Shown piece by piece: positions 961 to 8,306 of a stretch of 8,306 nt of DNA. This DNA is from Candidatus Micrarchaeota archaeon. Its GTDB lineage: Archaea > Micrarchaeota > Micrarchaeia > Anstonellales > Bilamarchaeaceae. The notes beneath the pieces were generated by a model, which worked only from the letters and a program-made list of their open reading frames with translations, was not told the DNA's origin and did no database searches. The stretch spans positions 1 to 8,306 of the forward strand of contig JBBITJ010000045.1 in assembly GCA_037440825.1 (NCBI GenBank). The letters are read 5' to 3'. A program made the position numbers and the translations under genes. Each line of letters starts with the position of its first letter. Within the stretch, counting starts at the first letter, position 1.

Positions 961-1653
961 TCAGAGCTTGACGTTCTTCCTCATCTTCTTGATGAGATCC
1001 TTGGCATCGTCCTGACCTCCAAGACCGAACGCTATGCCGAACGCGAGCCCCAGCCCGAATATCATAGCCTGCACAATCGTGAGGATCGTGCTGTTCACGA
1101 GGGAGGTGTCGAATCCGACCGTGTTGAGTCCCGTGATCACGCCCATGAGGACAATCACGAACTTCGCACCCCTTGCCACAAACGTGAGGTAGCTCGACTT
1201 GCCGAGCTCAAGGAGCTTGGTCTTCACGTATTCCCCTGTGAGCGCCGCGGCCACTATCACAAGCGCAGCCCCTATCAGGACGGGCGCGTAGATGAGCACG
1301 GTGTATATGTACGTGCTGAACTGCCCGAGCGAAACGAGCGCCGCCGAGACCTCAAGGAATACGAGTATCACGTATATCTTGACGATCTTGGAGAGCACGT
1401 TGCTGAGCTTCACGCTTCCGAGCGCGTCCTGGAGCTTGTGCATCTCCAGGAACTCCTCCAGCTTGACCATTTTCAGTATCTTCTCGAAGATTCTGCTGAT
1501 AAGTACTGCAATTATCCACCCGACCACGAACACTACCGTTGCTGCAATCAAGGACGGCAGCACGTTTATCATGCTCATGACAACTGTTGCCACCGCGTTC
1601 GCCGCGACGGAGCCGGCGTCGGTGATGGAATTCATAGACCAGGCATCTGCCAT
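961..1653 (-). CDS. Conserved TM-helix repeat membrane protein (MscS/CmpX-like small-conductance mechanosensitive channel N-terminal family)
   Basis: Multiple TM segments with LPSLIAA..VGWIIA, APVLIGAA and the C-terminal GLGLAFGIAFGLGG motif. Start moved to ATG 1653 because GGTGA (SD) lies 5 nt upstream. Confidence 0.8.
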   Translation of the reverse strand: MADAWSMNSITDAGSVAANAVATVVMSMINVLPSLIAATVVFVVGWIIAVLISRIFEKILKMVKLEEFLEMHKLQDALGSVKLSNVLSKIVKIYVILVFLEVSAALVSLGQFSTYIYTVLIYAPVLIGAALVIVAAALTGEYVKTKLLELGKSSYLTFVARGAKFVIVLMGVITGLNTVGFDTSLVNSTILTIVQAMIFGLGLAFGIAFGLGGQDDAKDLIKKMRKNVKL

Positions 1654-1678
1654 TCTAATCACCGAGGGAGTAATCACA

Positions 1679-1698
1679 CGAACCTATTTAAATGTTCG
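1679..1698. promoter_or_regulatory. Bidirectional TATA box flanked by an inverted repeat
   Basis: CGAAC-CT-ATTTAAAT-GTTCG in the 60-bp gap between divergent starts at 1653(-) and 1714(+). Confidence 0.5.
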
Positions 1699-1713
1699 CA
1701 TGCACCTCTCGTC

Positions 1714-2193
1714 ATGGATACGAATGAAAAGCCGTATTATCTGCTGAGCCCGCTGAGGGTGGTCCTTGTGAGCGCGAGCAGCAAGGGGAAGGACAATTTC
1801 ATGCCCGCGAGCTGGTGCTTCCCGCTCTCGTTCGAGCCCAAGCTGTTCGGAGTCGCGATTTCGCCGAAAAGATTCACGCACGGGCTGATAAAGGAGAGCG
1901 GGGAATACGTGATAAACATACCGGGTTCCAACCTGCTGGGCAAGATCGTGGAATTCGGAAGGCTTAGCGGCAAGGACTGCGACAAGTTCGAAAAATCCGG
2001 GCTCACGAAAGAGAAGTCCAGGAAGGTGGCAGCGGTTTCAATAAAGGAGTGCCTCGCGAGCATAGAATGCAAGGTCGTGGACGTGCTCAAAACTGGCGAC
2101 CACGACGTATTCGTGGGAGAAGTGCGAAATATAAACCTGCGCGGGAAAGGCCCAGGAATATATCAGAAAAACAGCGAGCTGGTCGAGATCTAG
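1714..2193 (+). CDS. Flavin reductase family protein (DIM6/NTAB-like)
   Basis: MDTNEKPYYLLSPLRVVLVS...NFMPASW...EP....VAI...RFT...I..SGEYVINIP...SG...DKF...ECKV...GDH..FVGEV. This is the real C-terminal part of the 820..2193 ORF. Confidence 0.9.
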   Translation: MDTNEKPYYLLSPLRVVLVSASSKGKDNFMPASWCFPLSFEPKLFGVAISPKRFTHGLIKESGEYVINIPGSNLLGKIVEFGRLSGKDCDKFEKSGLTKEKSRKVAAVSIKECLASIECKVVDVLKTGDHDVFVGEVRNINLRGKGPGIYQKNSELVEI

Positions 2194-2336
2194 TTGAGCC
2201 AATTAGGATCGACCGCAGTAGACGGGTTGCCGGATTGCACGGAAAAGAGCTTTTTAAGGCGCTTCATCTGGCTTTGGGGCATTACCGCATCTTGCTCGGA
2301 TTTCTTGTGTTCCTTGTCCTTTTTCTCCTTCTTCAT
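2190..2336 (-). CDS. Small basic hypothetical protein, 48 aa (MKKEKKDKEHKKSEQDAVMPQSQMKRLKKLFSVQSGNPSTAVDPNWLN)
   Basis: Not in the ORF track. ATG at 2336, TAG at 2190-2192, 4-bp overlap with the convergent flavin reductase gene. TTTATATA (2366-2359) lies 23-30 nt upstream. Confidence 0.6.
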   Translation of the reverse strand: MKKEKKDKEHKKSEQDAVMPQSQMKRLKKLFSVQSGNPSTAVDPNWLN

Positions 2337-2434
2337 GAGTGGTTCTGAGGCAGGAAAGTATATAAATCAGAGCGTTTGGGGGCGAAATGCGGAGCTAAAG
2401 CTGGGGAATTGGACAGAAGAATTAGATTTTGATG

Positions 2435-2743
2435 ATTTTTTCAGGGTTTTTAGGGTCCGAGTAACCTCACGGTGTCATGCACGCCCAGCACGACCTAGGA
2501 TCGCTTGCGCTTACCCTCTTTAAGCTGGAGGCATATCCGCTTGGTACGAATTTCTCGCGTGTGGCAGGTCATTCGTCTTTTTTTGCCAACATGCAGTTTC
2601 AAACCCCTTCCTAATGCATGCAGGCATTTAAAGCAACCACAGAGGCGAAAACCGCAGACCAATGGTGTCCAGACTGACTGGAGCTTTTGGACCAAACCAC
2701 GGGCCCTGCTCGGTTTACCCGAACCCTGAAAAAATATTTCAGG
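2435..2743 (-). ncRNA. Putative BHB-flanked structured ncRNA, copy 1 (predicted excised/circular form 2451-2714, 264 nt)
   Basis: 14-bp perfect outer stem (2722-2735 with 2435-2448), BHB GGGU-AAA / ACCC-UAA, inner stem CCGAG/CUCGG, and covariation with copy 2. Confidence 0.7.
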
Positions 2744-3005
2744 AATATACTTCGTTTCATTCAGGCAATTGCCAGAAGCCACTTCGACTTTTCGAGACTT
2801 TTAGGGTCCAGGTAACCTCACGGTGTCATGCACGCCCAGCACGACCTAGGATCGCTTGCGCTTACCCTCTTTAAGCTGGAGGCATATCCGCTTGGTACGA
2901 ATTTCTCGCGTGTGGCAGGTCATTCGTCTTTTTTTGCCAACATGCAGTTTCAAACCCCTTCCTAATGCATGCAGGCATTTAAAGCAACCACAGAGGCGAA
3001 AACCG
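2461..3005. repeat. Tandem direct repeat, period 351 bp; identical core 2461-2654 = 2812-3005
   Basis: Base-by-base comparison gives 194 bp with no differences. Diverged similarity extends over about 2405-2745 versus 2764-3090. Confidence 0.97.
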
Positions 3006-3090
3006 TAAACAAATGGCCCTTAGTTGTCCAAGGCTTTGTCCATACCACTTGTCCTGCCTGGTTTTCCCAAGCCCCGAAAAGTTTCAGGGG
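2787..3090 (-). ncRNA. Putative BHB-flanked structured ncRNA, copy 2 (predicted excised/circular form 2802-3062, 261 nt)
   Basis: 14-bp outer stem ACUUUUCGGGGCUU/AAGUCUCGAAAAGU (two G-U pairs that form only on the minus strand), BHB GGGA-AAA / ACCC-UAA, inner stem CCAGG/CCUGG. Confidence 0.7.
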
Positions 3091-3096
3091 ATTATT

Positions 3097-3135
3097 ATCT
3101 GCAACGAAACATTTTTAATGCTATCTTTTTTCGCA
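3097..3135 (-). promoter_or_regulatory. Candidate promoter of the RNA pair, overlapping a 14-bp shared motif
   Basis: Minus strand CGAAAAAAGATAGC-ATTAAAAAT (3119-3111), about 25-30 nt upstream of copy 2, followed by GTTTCGTTGCAGAT (3110-3097). Confidence 0.45.
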
Positions 3136-3204
3136 AAATCTACGACGTAGCCAGAAACTGCTTTATGCCGTTTTTCGGCCATCAGACGGTTCGAAAAGCG
3201 CACT

Positions 3205-3804
3205 TTATTTGGTCAGCGAAGACAGCAATTCGTACGCGCGCGAGGTGTCCGCCTCCCCTATCACGAGGAGCGTGTCCGTGTATGAAGAGATGAACTCGTT
3301 GACGTTTATGCCCTCCGCGGCCAGGAGATGGAGCACCGTGGATATCACGCCCGGAGTATCCTCTATCGCAGGGGTGCTCGAGAGTATGAACAGGTTGAGG
3401 TTCTCCTCGACGGAAAGTATGCTCTTGGAGCGCATGGCCTTGGCGGCCTCGCGCTGCTCCGCGATATACGTATAGAAGTGGCCGCTCTTCACCGACGACA
3501 CGGCCTCGAGCTCCAGCGGCGCGGAGGAGATCAGCACCACGACCTTGTTCCTTATGCTTATGGACGTGTCCTTGAGGACTTCGAGCACCTTGCCCTCCAT
3601 CTCAGTCTCCTTCTTCCGTATCCTGGCGCCTATGCGCATGAGCGCGGCCTTCACCGCATAGAAGTTCGACTGGGAGCGGAATACCTCCTTGCACAGCTTG
3701 CGCGCGAGGCGGCTGTAATTCACCAAGTCATATTTCAGCATCTCCTTTATGAACGGCCTGCGCTTCACGTAGAGCCACACGAGCTCGCTCGTCTTTTCCA
3801 TCAT
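3205..3804 (-). CDS. ACT domain-containing protein (N-terminal helical domain + C-terminal ACT; putative amino-acid-sensing regulator)
   Basis: N-terminal P....L...LVNYS.LAR motif and C-terminal ACT motif TPGVIS......LA.EGINV.E..SSYTDT..VI. Start at ATG 3804 (or 3801), 28 nt downstream of the start of TTTAAA (3832-3827). Confidence 0.85.
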   Translation of the reverse strand: MMEKTSELVWLYVKRRPFIKEMLKYDLVNYSRLARKLCKEVFRSQSNFYAVKAALMRIGARIRKKETEMEGKVLEVLKDTSISIRNKVVVLISSAPLELEAVSSVKSGHFYTYIAEQREAAKAMRSKSILSVEENLNLFILSSTPAIEDTPGVISTVLHLLAAEGINVNEFISSYTDTLLVIGEADTSRAYELLSSLTK

Positions 3805-3826
3805 GCATCGCACTATGCGGACAAGG

Positions 3827-3950
3827 TTTAAATCCGTTTCGTTGCAGATTTGTCCCAAATGGAGCGTTTTTGTTTTTTATGCCCGAAATGCAACGCAATA
3901 TTTAAAAGCGTGAAAACGCCCATGTCCAGTATTCTATTGTTTAGGTGGGA
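3827..3950. promoter_or_regulatory. Divergent promoter region ACT gene / argG
   Basis: TTTAAA at 3827-3832 and TTTAAAA at 3901-3907, each preceded in its own direction by TGCAACG (3846-3840 minus; 3889-3895 plus). AGGTGG SD precedes argG. Confidence 0.6.
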
Positions 3951-6654: not shown

Positions 6655-7096
6655 TTTCTATCCTGTCGCCCTCTCTTATCCCGTGCAACATGGAGAAGTT
6701 CTGGTTGACTTCCAATACGTAATACGAGGGCCATTGCGAGATGTAGATGGTGCAGTTGGGCATCCGGTTTTCAGTCCCTTCGTCGGCGCACGGCTCCATC
6801 TCCTGTATGTCAACTATGGTCAGGTTCCGGTCTATGAATATAGCTTCCAGGGGGATTTTCGTATTCACCATCCAGAACGCGTGGTATGCGCTCTCGCCCA
6901 TGTAGAACAGCATGCCCTCGTTCTCCCTGAGCTCCTTGCGGAACATCAGACCCTTCCCTATCGTTTCAGGCGTGTCGGCTTTTTCAGCCAGGACCGATAC
7001 GTTAGCGCCTTCGAAATGGACCGTGACCCGCTGGCTCAGGCAACCCAGAAGCAGGAGCGAAATGATTAAAAAGAAGACAAATGATCCGCGCCTCAT
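6647..7096 (-). CDS. DUF192 family protein with lipoprotein-like signal peptide
   Basis: MRR-hydrophobic-LLLGC N-terminus; ADTPE...GLMFR, GMLF, FWM.NT.IPL...FID, YVLEVN motifs. ATGA overlap with the fbp stop. Confidence 0.9.
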   Translation of the reverse strand: MRRGSFVFFLIISLLLLGCLSQRVTVHFEGANVSVLAEKADTPETIGKGLMFRKELRENEGMLFYMGESAYHAFWMVNTKIPLEAIFIDRNLTIVDIQEMEPCADEGTENRMPNCTIYISQWPSYYVLEVNQNFSMLHGIREGDRIEIR

Positions 7097-8208
7097 TTTT
7101 CCATCTTGACGAAGCGGTCCTTGAGCTTCTCCATGACTTTCGGCATGCTCGTGTACTCCATCTCTTCTGCCGAGAGCCTGTGCGGCTCGAAGGGTCCGTG
7201 CCTCCTCATGTAATCCGCCACGTCCAGAGCGATCTTCCGGGCGTTGTCGAACGCTATGTCGCCCAAAAGGTCCGCGGGACCGACAAGCTTTCCGTTCGCT
7301 ATCTGGAATCCCAAACCGACTACGCGGGTGGGACCGTCGAACCTGCTCGTCATGGAATTGTGCATCCCAACAGGCATGAGCGGGCCGTTGTGCGAGCCCC
7401 TCATCCAACCTGCGACAAGGTGCGGGAATGCGAACGGCTCGAGCGCCTCGCCTTGCGAGGGAAGCCCGGACTGGCACCTCACTATCGCAACCGGGTCGTC
7501 TTTTCCGACGTATTCTCCGGCAATCAGGTGAAGCTTGTCCGTGCTCACGACCGCGACTGCCTCGTGCTCTGGAACCTTGTTGCCCTTGCGCGGATAGACG
7601 CGCTTGATCACGTATTTGCTCTTTGCGCCTATGAGCGCCAGGAGCGAGTAGAGCTCCTCCGGACTGTTCAGAATGACCTTCTTGTTCTCGTATATGTCCC
7701 AAACCTCGAACGCAAAACCAGAAACCATGTGGGGGTCTATGATGAGCCCCGCGGTCGTGAACGGGTCGCCGAACATCTTGAATATGGGAAGGTTGAACGC
7801 GCCCGGATCCGTCTTGTCCATCATGAATACGATCACAGGCTCGCTCTTTCTCTCCTCGAATTCCAATTCCGCGCATCCGGGGCCCATGCCTTTTATGTTC
7901 CCGCTGAACGCATCCGCGAGCAGGTCCTGGCCTGCGCCGTAGAGCTTGAGCTCCTTGGCGATGGCCGTGGCCGCGACGAACGTGTCCCACGCGAGCGCGT
8001 GCACCTCCTTGCAATCCACGCCTTTGTCGTGCGTCATTATGAGCTGGAGATCATCGCCTACCTTCGCTACGTGATAATCGATGATTATGCCCTTCTTCTT
8101 CGCGGCCCCCAGGCTCTTGTTCGCACTCTCTATGAGCTTCTGGTGCACGTCCGAATGGCCCGTGAATCCGCCTACGTCCGCTTTTATCACTGTCAATGTG
8201 GTCTTCAT
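7093..8208 (-). CDS. fbp: Bifunctional fructose-1,6-bisphosphate aldolase/phosphatase (class V FBPase)
   Basis: Motifs IKADVGG..GH, GDD, LYGAGQDLL, DKT.PGAFN, YVGKDDP (Schiff-base Lys), GWMRGSH.GP, RFDGP, HGPFEPHRL. AGGTGA SD at 8218-8213. Confidence 0.97.
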   Translation of the reverse strand: MKTTLTVIKADVGGFTGHSDVHQKLIESANKSLGAAKKKGIIIDYHVAKVGDDLQLIMTHDKGVDCKEVHALAWDTFVAATAIAKELKLYGAGQDLLADAFSGNIKGMGPGCAELEFEERKSEPVIVFMMDKTDPGAFNLPIFKMFGDPFTTAGLIIDPHMVSGFAFEVWDIYENKKVILNSPEELYSLLALIGAKSKYVIKRVYPRKGNKVPEHEAVAVVSTDKLHLIAGEYVGKDDPVAIVRCQSGLPSQGEALEPFAFPHLVAGWMRGSHNGPLMPVGMHNSMTSRFDGPTRVVGLGFQIANGKLVGPADLLGDIAFDNARKIALDVADYMRRHGPFEPHRLSAEEMEYTSMPKVMEKLKDRFVKMEK

Positions 8209-8306
8209 GGTTTCACCTAGGAATCGAATCCATCCTATTTATGCAAACGAATAATTAATTATTCCTTCTTTTCGCCCTTGCTTGCCTTTGAAAGGAACGC
8301 GCTTAT

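Follow-up and report, generated by a model that had tools for sequence, protein, structure and literature searches.

Tandem genes for a structured non-coding RNA of Micrarchaeota, closed by relaxed bulge-helix-bulge motifs and predicted to be released as circles

Circularisation that depends on motifs of the bulge-helix-bulge (BHB) kind is a well-established process for rRNA precursors and for tRNA introns and, beyond these, we know of one special case of an RNA circularised in this way, the permuted SRP RNA. Here, we ask what is encoded by two tandem repeat units, each with ends that pair in a BHB-like arrangement, in an 8,306-nt stretch of DNA (the window) from a relative of Candidatus Micrarchaeota, phylum Micrarchaeota. 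The answer that we favour, with about even confidence, is that a new family of structured non-coding RNAs, confined to one lineage of Micrarchaeota, is encoded here by two genes in tandem, and that EndA/RtcB would excise the predicted circles.

The repeat claimed in a preliminary description of the window was recovered: positions 2438-2665 and 2789-3016 (228 nt) are 96% identical at a spacing of 351, and the strings quoted in that description lie where it had placed them. The two units, both on the minus strand and with a period of 351, run from 2735 to 2435 (copy 1) and from 3082 to 2787 (copy 2) and are separated by a spacer (2736-2786, minus strand); copy 2 is the upstream, promoter-proximal unit and copy 1 the downstream unit. 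Related loci were collected from genome contigs with the neighbouring ACT protein as the query; all five come from Candidatus Micrarchaeota MAGs, and archaeal marker genes are present on the Micrarchaeota related loci (52 ORFs, 57 kb). In a second Micrarchaeota MAG (locus L001), an orthologue is present in single copy and is 78-79% identical, and the RNA has the same position, orientation and neighbour genes there as in the window species. In all, three sequences from two genomes were found.

Each unit is closed by a leader-trailer helix of 13-14 bp, a GGG/CCC central helix with staggered bulges and an inner helix of 5 bp. In copy 1, the 14-nt arms (leader arm 2735-2722, trailer arm 2448-2435) are 100% complementary, GGGU (2720-2717) is paired with ACCC (2456-2453), the bulges are AAA (2716-2714) and UAA (2452-2450), the inner helix CCGAG/CUCGG is formed by 2713-2709 with 2461-2457, and C2721, opposite A2449, is left unpaired together with it next to the 3' bulge. 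The minimum-energy fold of copy 1 is exactly this BHB-like arrangement (z -4.09; 0 of 100 shuffles equally stable). In copy 2, the arms (leader arm 3082-3069, trailer arm 2800-2787) form 14 pairs, two of them G-U, GGGA (3068-3065) faces ACCC (2807-2804) in three pairs and an A.A, the bulges are AAA (3064-3062) and UAA (2803-2801), and the inner helix CCAGG/CCUGG is formed by 3061-3057 with 2812-2808 (z -2.83; 1 of 100 shuffles as stable). The central helix of L001 is likewise GGGA/ACCC, with three pairs and an A.A.

As originally described for the two copies, bulges of 3 nt lie on opposite strands, and they do so in all three sequences, AAA 3' of GGG(U/A) and UAA 3' of ACCC. The 4-bp central helix reported for both copies holds for copy 1 but not for copy 2, and the single nearby mismatch reported for each copy is present but was understated, in that one bulge per copy is effectively a 4x1 internal loop. 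The motif is a relaxed BHB, with the strict 3-4-3 form in none of the copies, and an EndA of strict specificity would probably be unable to cut it. The polarity of the bulges is that used by archaeal EndA, by comparison with the tRNA description in PMC4090602, and the epsilon2 EndA of ARMAN-2 (Micrarchaeum) is described as cleaving both strict and relaxed BHB motifs in vitro (PMC3239211). With cuts after the second nucleotide of each bulge, a rule that we infer from the tRNA case as described in PMC4090602, the excised sizes given earlier are reproduced, i.e. 264 nt for copy 1 (2714-2451, minus strand) with a predicted junction joining GGACCCUA to ACCGAGC, and 261 nt for copy 2 (3062-2802, minus strand) with a predicted junction joining GGACCCUA to ACCAGGC; the predicted circle of the orthologue is 259 nt, with a predicted junction joining GGACCCUA to ACCAGGU.

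The outer stems differ between the copies and remain paired, as had been proposed, with 13-14 pairs and both-side changes in 2 of 13 outer pairs; similarly, the compensatory swaps noted in the inner stem are found in 2 of its 5 pairs. The BHB is also kept in the sole orthologue found, in which the motif is present letter for letter and the flanking helices covary. Across the three sequences, the three central G-C pairs and both bulges are constant.

We scanned for this geometry to see how often it arises by chance; a match needed the correct polarity, at least 12 pairs in the outer helix and 5 in the inner helix, and no fewer than 3 of the 4 central pairs. The window gave three matches, i.e. 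the two copies and, on the plus strand of copy 1, the motif in an alternative register, while 60 dinucleotide shuffles gave a mean of 0.033 matches, with any match in 2 of 60. At a short-helix setting (outer helix at least 8, inner at least 4), 134 matches were found in 132 kb, and at the strict setting the other loci gave five AT-rich false matches. Because the short-helix version is common by chance and false matches occur elsewhere, geometry alone is weak evidence, and the case for a BHB rests on the long helices, their conservation and their covariation.

The RNA is encoded on the minus strand, as had been suggested: 43 of 293 paired cells are G-U and would be A.C on the opposite strand. 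On this ground a plus-strand RNA was rejected, even though its fold is similar (z -3.94). The L001 unit has a fold with z -3.96 relative to shuffles, and in the fold of the dimer (z -4.70) each unit is closed by its own ends. Taken over the three sequences, pairing holds in 97.6% of the 293 cells, and 11 of 99 pairs are changed on both sides; shuffles give 4.0 ± 1.6 such pairs, with 0 of 500 reaching 11, and slid controls give 0-3. These statistics are thin, as they draw on no more than three sequences from two genomes, of which two have identical cores, and the structure tested for covariation was derived from the same three sequences. Four of the pairs changed on both sides lie in helices 4 and 5 of domain 1, a variable hairpin on the minus strand (2656-2706 in copy 1, 3006-3054 in copy 2) in which 19 of 51 aligned positions differ between the copies while pairing is kept. 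By contrast, the 194-nt core of domains 2 and 3 (minus strand; 2461-2654 in copy 1, 2812-3005 in copy 2) is identical between them. Within the core, a block of 44 nt (minus strand; 2485-2528 in copy 1, 2836-2879 in copy 2; columns 18-61) is the same in all three sequences and consists of a helix, a 6x7 internal loop, a 5-bp helix and a GCAA-capped tip; it holds helices 13 and 14 of the covarying model.

A predicted archaeal promoter precedes the upstream unit (3111-3125, minus strand), with a GATAG box followed by the TATA box TTAAAAAT (3118-3111). It aligns with GATAG and TTTAATAA at 696-707 of L001, and the TATA box is conserved and equidistant in copy 2 and L001, its centre lying ~26 nt upstream of CCUGAAA, the heptamer in front of the 5' arm. 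From this box we place the transcription start by inference. In L001, a T7 run follows 3 nt past the trailer, and this run, with a separate TATA-like box, parts the RNA from a conserved 48-aa ORF that is located immediately downstream on the same strand, co-oriented in both genomes. In the spacer before copy 1, no TATA box is present at the position conserved in copy 2 and L001, so that only the upstream copy has one; the spacer CCUGAAA (2743-2737) is a direct copy of part of the trailer arm and is also able to pair with the leader arm. A U6 run lies within the 5' (leader) arm of copy 1, and read-through from copy 2 could end there. A dimeric precursor is plausible, because the TATA box is found only upstream and yet the stems of the downstream unit are maintained by compensatory changes; the expression of copy 1, and hence the dimeric precursor, is uncertain because of the U6 run in its leader arm and the lack of the conserved TATA box.

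The alternative that survives best, which we judge unlikely but not markedly so, is a linear structured non-coding RNA in which the closing stem protects the transcript ends and the bulges are an internal-loop motif resembling a BHB, e.g. a site of protein binding or tertiary contact, so that EndA would make no cut and no circle would form. In line with this alternative, none of the copies has the strict 3-4-3 form, short-helix BHB-like geometry is as frequent by chance as described above, the predicted start and the L001 terminator fall within a few nucleotides of the stem ends as an end-protecting stem predicts, and constant bulges and a constant central helix suit any functional motif, EndA site or other. 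On the other hand, polarity, bulge sizes and spacing all match EndA, the long-helix geometry is rare in shuffled windows, a relaxed-specificity EndA is known from the lineage according to PMC3239211, and leader, trailer and TATA spacing parallel the Thermoproteus case described as proven in PMC4731332.

The claim that the RNA belongs to no known family stood: with Rfam 15, 0 of 4227 families reached the gathering threshold in the window, and likewise in the five related loci. At E <= 10, queries of 311 nt and 951 nt gave scores of 11-17 bits only, against thresholds of 45-80. Similarly, no host tRNA or rRNA is present, as ARAGORN found 0 tRNAs in the window and the related loci and Rfam gave no tRNA or rRNA in the window and the five loci, and the reported lack of tRNA, 5S, SRP and RNase P hallmarks agrees with Rfam, in which no match to these was found even at E <= 10.

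These results bear on a second alternative, improbable in our view, that the units encode a universal RNA, RNase P or SRP RNA, which is matured through the BHB and is diverged, rearranged or permuted too far for Rfam. The size of ~260 nt and the single-locus housekeeping context fit such an RNA, and the permuted SRP RNA described in PMC4731332 is a precedent. Moreover, a comparison by eye of 2574-2557 with the E. coli rnpB segment AGAUGAAUGACUGUCCAC gives 14 matching letters in 18, and the stretch is followed by a purine-rich ...GAGAA. This stretch of domain 2 resembles what we take to be the conserved J18/2-P2-J2/4 region of RNase P RNA. However, the Rfam models for RNase P, SRP and other RNAs gave nothing at E <= 10 with either query, and the 951-nt query (2300-3250) held the natural permuted order, i.e. 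the 3' part of copy 2, the spacer and the 5' part of copy 1, so that the lack of an SRP match there includes the permuted order across the copy junction, with ~120 nt of spacer. In blastn-short comparisons of the predicted circles with E. coli rnpB, the best match was 9 nt (E 0.28), and by our estimate a match of 14 of 18 is expected ~0.4 times by chance. The ...GAGAA segment is altered in L001 and belongs to a paired region of the covarying model, no circular permutation of the RNase P order gives the order in which the look-alike segments occur, and two gene copies would be unusual for RNase P or SRP RNAs. SRP RNA was rejected on the absence of an Rfam signal with these two queries and of a rod-like fold, and RNase P RNA on the 9-nt best match to rnpB, on the null Rfam result and on the look-alike segment of domain 2 being paired, and variable in L001.

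Other identities were tried and rejected. H/ACA guide RNAs have a pocketed hairpin with a K-turn or K-loop in the upper stem and a conserved ACA box ~14 nt 3' of the pocket. In the window, 14 nt past the 3' strand of the internal loop in domain 3, there is an ACA that is not kept in L001; no K-turn pattern was seen and the Rfam H/ACA matches are noise. A C/D guide RNA was discarded for lack of conserved boxes. At least two stop codons interrupt every frame of each predicted circle, a 95-aa ORF (2495-2782, minus strand) has no relative in the protein collection among proteins of 52-167 aa, and Pfam assigned no family to the two ORFs of the repeat that were compared with it (2495-2782, minus strand; 2194-2523, plus strand), which together argue against protein coding. 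As for an antisense regulator of the neighbours, perfect complementarity to other parts of the window extends to 10 nt at most, a length that 97 of 100 shuffled RNAs reach or exceed. Finally, the literature titles and abstract openings searched describe no such RNA for Micrarchaeota or DPANN archaea.

The two copies have not diverged evenly. The core shows 0 of 194 differences between the copies and 38 of 191 relative to L001, while 33 of 100 positions in the rest of the RNA differ between the copies, always compensated in the stems (Fisher 6e-18 relative to the core). In domain 1, the divergence between the copies (19/51) equals that from L001 (16/52 and 16/51). The identity of the core, set against the diverged remainder, points to concerted evolution in the core, with the closing stems and domain 1 appearing to have diverged with compensation. 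Searches of 66 kb with a three-sequence nhmmer profile and with a covariance model of domain 3 (filters off) returned only the three known copies. In three Micrarchaeota loci that are more distant, the neighbourhood of the ACT gene yielded no copy of the RNA, so that its conservation is narrow as far as seen.

We consider it very improbable that the units are a selfish or mobile BHB-bounded element, such as an intron-like insert or a retro-copied circular RNA, that is intergenic, duplicated and without cellular function. The tandem arrangement, the short direct repeat CCUGAAA upstream of the leader and again inside the trailer, and the empty equivalent position in the three more distant relatives are what such an element could leave. 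However, the duplicated segment extends past the predicted circle into its flanks (period 351, flank similarity), so that the duplication occurred at the DNA level, position, orientation and neighbour genes are the same in two species, and the invariant 44-nt block together with compensatory changes elsewhere indicates purifying selection. Moreover, no transposase or reverse transcriptase was seen by Pfam near the tandem units in the window, and blastn gave no match in either the phage or the plasmid collection, on which a phage or plasmid origin was rejected. Least of all, and with hardly any weight, the RNA might be a cis-regulatory, riboswitch-like leader of the conserved 48-aa ORF, which it adjoins in the same orientation in both genomes; the T7 run and TATA-like box that separate the two in L001, the oddity of two complete tandem units for a leader and the lack of a match to riboswitch families in Rfam all speak against this.

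Returning to two tandem genes of a new family with predicted circles, we propose that transcription would start ~20-23 nt upstream of the predicted 5' cut, from the TATA promoter before copy 2, and would probably continue through both units. Pairing of leader and trailer over 13-14 bp would present the relaxed BHB atop the 5-bp inner helix, EndA would cut past the second nucleotide of each bulge and RtcB would join the ends into the circles of 264 and 261 nt, or 259 nt in the orthologue. Neither endA nor rtcB is among the 52 ORFs in 57 kb of the related loci. The RNA is probably released as a circle, in which folding predicts four arms round one junction: a 5-bp hairpin that is new and has ACCCUAA as its loop, the fast-evolving hairpin of domain 1, the 110-nt irregular hairpin of domain 2 and the 82-nt hairpin of domain 3, which would contain the 44-nt invariant block. 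A stable circle would be the end product in this reading; it is also possible that the circle is an intermediate to be opened again, as happens when rRNA matures, or that the RNA is not cut. Our guess at a function is a stable protein-binding or scaffold RNA.

The closest known system is the SRP RNA of Thermoproteus tenax and T. uzoniensis, which PMC4731332 describes as encoded by a free-standing non-coding RNA gene whose own TATA box lies 26 nt upstream of the start and whose leader is 23 nt long, comparable to the ~20-23 nt predicted here; there, too, leader-trailer pairing forms a BHB. In its host lineage tRNA introns are numerous and EndA is of relaxed specificity, as may also hold here. 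Circles produced by the tRNA-splicing machinery are demonstrated there (PMC4731332) and only predicted here. The SRP RNA is a recognisable permuted universal RNA in which circularisation restores a functional loop (PMC4731332), whereas the Micrarchaeota RNA matches no known family, shows no sign of permutation and has a gene duplicated in tandem. Circles of pre-16S and pre-23S rRNA, as presented in 10.64898/2026.03.23.713588 and PMC12918454, also rely on a long leader-trailer processing stem with a BHB and on excision by EndA followed by ligation, steps that are only proposed for the Micrarchaeota RNA; their cargo is operon rRNA, and as a rule the circle is an intermediate and is later reopened (10.64898/2026.03.23.713588; PMC12918454), while the cargo here is a 260-nt RNA outside known families. 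With circular tRNA introns, some of which contain C/D box sRNAs, the RNA would share the enzymes, the cut positions in 3-nt bulges and an excised piece that becomes the circle (PMC4090602); unlike them, it has no tRNA host, and the ligated 'exons' would be a hairpin of ~40 nt with no recognisable function. Finally, the IS200/IS605 omega RNA circles of Halobacterium and other archaea are archaeal circular non-coding RNAs outside rRNA and tRNA (PMC12558985), as is predicted here; they are tied to TnpB transposons, whereas the Micrarchaeota locus has no transposase gene, and the abstract of PMC12558985 does not link their biogenesis to a leader-trailer BHB.

A broader interpretation, which we advance only tentatively, is that the units represent a new class of DNA-encoded archaeal circRNAs, with free-standing genes whose only maturation signal is the leader-trailer BHB, so that the tRNA-splicing machinery would serve as a dedicated circRNA factory for cargo that is neither permuted nor rRNA nor tRNA, here in two isoforms. 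The isoforms from the tandem pair would share the identical 194-nt body, kept equal by gene conversion, and the mutually orthogonal closing stems would let each unit be excised as a monomer from one precursor. The differing hairpins of domain 1 could set partner specificity. Moreover, the ACCC freed in the 7-nt loop could form a kissing contact with the invariant GGGGU of domain 2's apical loop, in which case cleavage would switch the fold. If the prediction is true, the moonlighting of EndA/RtcB would extend to ordinary gene expression, in the form of a dedicated, conserved circular non-coding RNA gene in DPANN archaea; a phylum of very small genomes, in which each retained RNA is likely to be important, would gain a new structured RNA family, and the leader-trailer pair would be a natural, compact cassette for the production of circular RNA. 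Because the predicted junction sequences are exact, metatranscriptomes that already exist allow a direct test of the idea.

All three units have a second A/T-rich box immediately upstream of CCUGAAA. If this box is used, transcription would start near the GGG of the central helix and the leader arm would be left untranscribed.

The preliminary description had proposed a tandem repeat on the minus strand, the units of which end in paired bulge-helix-bulge (BHB) motifs, the substrate of the archaeal splicing endonuclease EndA. The repeat was recovered as 228 nt of 96% identity with a period of 351 nt (2438-2665 versus 2789-3016), the minus-strand strings quoted for its ends are present in the sequence, and folding of copy 1 (2435-2735) and copy 2 (2787-3082) with ViennaRNA paired the ends of each unit exactly as had been stated. 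The 14-nt arms of copy 1 (2435-2448 and 2722-2735) are perfectly complementary. Copy 1 folded at -112.7 kcal/mol (z -4.09; 0 of 100 shuffles equally stable) and copy 2 at -105.6 kcal/mol (z -2.83; 1 of 100). Moreover, the 668-nt dimer folded at -233.5 kcal/mol (z -4.70; 0 of 20), with closure within each unit and not between units.

From the outside inwards, each unit comprises on the minus strand an outer helix of 13-14 pairs, a GGG/CCC central helix with the bulges AAA (5' strand) and UAA (3' strand), and an inner helix of 5 pairs. Both bulges lie 3' of their own central-helix strand, i.e. they have the polarity of a true BHB, in agreement with the tRNA case described in PMC4090602. The central helix of copy 1 has 4 bp (GGGU/ACCC), and C2721 and A2449 are unpaired beside the 3' bulge; in copy 2, GGGA/ACCC forms three pairs and an A.A. 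The motif is relaxed in both copies. Assuming a cut after the second nucleotide of each bulge, the excised pieces would be 264 nt (2714-2451) and 261 nt (3062-2802), the sizes originally predicted.

A search of species-representative genomes with the protein of the neighbouring ACT-domain gene (3205-3858, minus strand) identified five loci in four MAGs with 72-90% protein identity, all titled Candidatus Micrarchaeota archaeon; the archaeal markers topoisomerase VI, PolD DP2, aEF-1alpha and L15e are among the ORFs of the related loci. One locus, L001, contains a single RNA copy (737-1030; 78-79% identical) directly downstream of the ACT gene, the same arrangement as in the window. In the more distant loci L002, L003 and L004, other ORFs immediately follow the ACT gene, and the RNA was detected neither by nhmmer nor by a covariance model of domain 3 with filters off; this model assigned 95-110 bits to the three known copies, and E values were at least 2.3 for the nine further matches listed.

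RNAalifold analysis of copy 1, copy 2 and L001 gave a consensus of 99 pairs in which the closing stem leads to a three-way junction with three domains on the minus strand, i.e. a variable domain 1 (~50 nt), domain 2, which is an irregular hairpin of 110 nt with a 19-nt apical loop, and domain 3 (82 nt). On this structure, 97.6% of 293 cells pair. Changes on both sides were found in 11 of the 99 pairs, compared with 4.0 +/- 1.6 in partner-shuffled controls (0 of 500 reach 11) and 0-3 with partners slid by 1-3 columns, counted in only three sequences, two of which are identical in domains 2 and 3, and on a structure derived from these same sequences. The closing stems, previously described as diverged between copies yet still paired, have both-side changes in two of the 13 outer and two of the five inner pairs, and two further outer pairs are G-C in some sequences and G-U in others. 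No change affects the three central G-C pairs or either bulge in the three sequences; thus, the L001 homologue retains the BHB-like motif. G-U pairs account for 43 of the 293 paired cells, so that the opposite strand would pair only 82.9%, and we conclude that the minus strand is the RNA strand. Finally, domain 3 includes a 44-nt block (2528-2485 in copy 1) that is identical in the three sequences.

The chance occurrence of the geometry was assessed by a purpose-written scan that required the correct polarity and was applied to the window and five related loci, each on both strands (132 kb in total). With short helices (outer at least 8, inner at least 4), the geometry was common, with 134 matches. 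With an outer helix of at least 12 and an inner helix of at least 5 pairs, nine matches were left: the three RNA units, one plus-strand match of copy 1 in an alternative register, and five fortuitous matches in L002 and L003 that are rich in AT and in G-U pairs. In 60 dinucleotide-shuffled versions of the window, the mean was 0.033 matches, versus three in the window itself. Because short-helix matches are common and AT-rich coincidences occur at the strict setting, the geometry by itself is weak evidence, and the argument rests on the length of the helices and, most of all, on the comparison between sequences.

Several known identities for the RNA were considered. A segment that we took to resemble RNase P RNA was compared with E. 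coli rnpB and with the class A consensus of Rfam and was rejected as such: the best local match to rnpB was 9 nt (E 0.28), and in the L001 orthologue this segment is paired and varies in sequence. Rfam searches of the sequence in its genomic order gave no support for an SRP RNA. In line with tRNA, 5S, SRP and RNase P hallmarks having been reported as lacking, searches of the linear sequence against Rfam 15 gave no gathering-level match in the window or related loci, and only noise of 11-17 bits at E <= 10, and ARAGORN found no tRNA. Protein coding is rejected by stops in all reading frames of the predicted circles; a 95-aa ORF over the RNA had no relative among proteins of 52-167 aa in the protein collection. 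The RNA locus had no match in phage and plasmid collections, and complementarity of the RNA to neighbouring genes was nothing unusual.

On the minus strand, copy 2 precedes copy 1. Upstream of copy 2, a GATAG box followed by TTAAAAAT (3118-3111) constitutes a predicted promoter, which aligns with GATAG and TTTAATAA in L001 (696-707). The usual archaeal spacing from TATA box to start is ~26 nt, and on this basis the predicted start is placed on CCUGAAA, which immediately precedes the leader arm; the distance from there to the predicted 5' cut is ~20-23 nt. A putative terminator in L001 is a T7 run 3 nt past the trailer arm. Copy 1 has no TATA box, with an alignment gap of 8 nt at that place, and appears to have no promoter of its own. 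The inner helix is CCGAG/CUCGG in copy 1 versus CCAGG/CCUGG in copy 2 and L001, the stems of which represent the ancestral-looking state. Because these changes are fully compensated despite the missing TATA box, transcription must include the copy 1 leader arm, and this favours read-through from copy 2, i.e. a dimeric precursor. U runs can terminate transcription in archaea, and the copy 1 leader arm contains a U6 run (2729-2734, minus strand; U4 in copy 2, U5 in L001) that may act as the terminator of copy 2, limiting read-through and copy 1 expression. A second A/T-rich box lies directly upstream of CCUGAAA in copy 1, copy 2 and L001; if used, it would place the start near the central GGG and count against the proposed leader.

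The CCUGAAA heptamer itself (2737-2743 and 3083-3089, minus strand; L001 730-736) lies just upstream of the leader arms, at or before the predicted transcription start. It repeats part of the trailer arm in direct orientation and can form a local hairpin with the leader arm; it could serve as an alternative pairing partner or belong to the initiator region.

Under the dimeric-precursor model, transcription from the copy 2 promoter would proceed through one or both units, each of which is predicted from the dimer fold to fold independently. EndA would then recognise the relaxed BHB and cut after the second nucleotide of each bulge, as suggested by the geometry, by a motif that stays invariant while its flanks covary, and by the demonstrated relaxed specificity of the enzyme of Micrarchaeum (ARMAN-2) (PMC3239211; structure paper PMC12397907). 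By precedent of tRNA and SRP RNA, the ligase RtcB would join the ends, giving a four-armed circle whose newly created arm would consist of the 5-bp inner helix and an ACCCUAA cap. We give EndA processing of the units about an even chance, and hold it more doubtful that the circle is the final functional form. The invariant 44-nt block and a GNRA-capped tip suggest a possible protein- or RNA-binding platform. After excision, ACCCU (2451-2456, minus strand) would lie in a 7-nt hairpin loop and is complementary to an invariant GGGGU (about 2601-2605, minus strand) in the 19-nt apical loop of domain 2; a kissing contact between them could replace the leader pairing, and both are invariant and thus beyond the reach of covariation.

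The 194-nt core is identical between the copies (2654-2461 versus 3005-2812), while 33 of 100 aligned positions differ in the rest of the RNA (Fisher 6e-18), and 38 of 191 core positions differ from L001. In domain 1, the copies are as far from each other (19 of 51 positions) as each is from L001 (16 of 52 and 16 of 51), and therefore the duplication looks old. The core appears to have been homogenised, most simply by gene conversion, and divergence of the closing stems and domain 1 appears to be tolerated or selected.

Among known cases, the nearest is the permuted SRP RNA of Thermoproteus. The TATA box of its precursor is described as lying 26 nt before the start, and the leader, of 23 nt, as forming a BHB by pairing with the trailer (PMC4731332). 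As far as that account goes, the two share the leader-trailer BHB and, by prediction here, the machinery; however, the Thermoproteus cargo is a known RNA whose permutation is repaired by the circle, whereas the Micrarchaeota units belong to an unknown family with no visible permutation. Circles from pre-rRNA and tRNA introns involve the same chemistry with other cargos, and the Micrarchaeota gene is duplicated in tandem with orthogonal stems. Thus, BHB circularisation itself is already known, and what is new is a cargo of unknown family; in titles and abstract openings, with subscription journals thinly covered, no RNA of this kind was described for Micrarchaeota or DPANN.

The remaining neighbours in the window are ordinary genes, i.e. 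a flavin-reductase-domain gene, argG, argH, a DUF192 gene and a class V fructose-1,6-bisphosphatase gene (7093-8208, minus strand). The latter is 80.6% identical in DNA to L004 140-1252, which encodes the same enzyme (Pfam FBPase_3, E 8e-178), and the overlapping plus-strand ORF 7081-8220 is therefore spurious. In the 457-aa plus-strand ORF 820-2193, the Flavin_Reduct match is confined to residues 312-449, and an overlapping minus-strand ORF (961-1677) matches a mechanosensitive-channel TM helix (E 9.5e-09); the plus-strand ORF is probably over-extended, with two genes in this region. In L004, the ACT-domain gene lies beside a full arginine cluster (argJ, amino-acid kinase, OTCase, argG and argH; 1965-10588), and a link of the ACT protein to arginine metabolism, and not to the RNA, is probable. 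In L003, a 174-aa ORF (1647-2168, plus strand) with an OrfB_IS605 (TnpB-like) match adjoins a DNA methylase fragment; this has the appearance of a transposon remnant and bears no relation to the RNA locus. Finally, in both genomes the RNA is followed after ~100 nt by a conserved 48-aa ORF in the same orientation (window 2190-2336, minus strand; L001 1106-1252, plus strand). It matched no Pfam family at E <= 0.1; its N-terminus is lysine-rich, the two proteins align over their length (..VMP...LKKLFS..SGN..), and the L001 ORF is preceded by its own TATA-like box.
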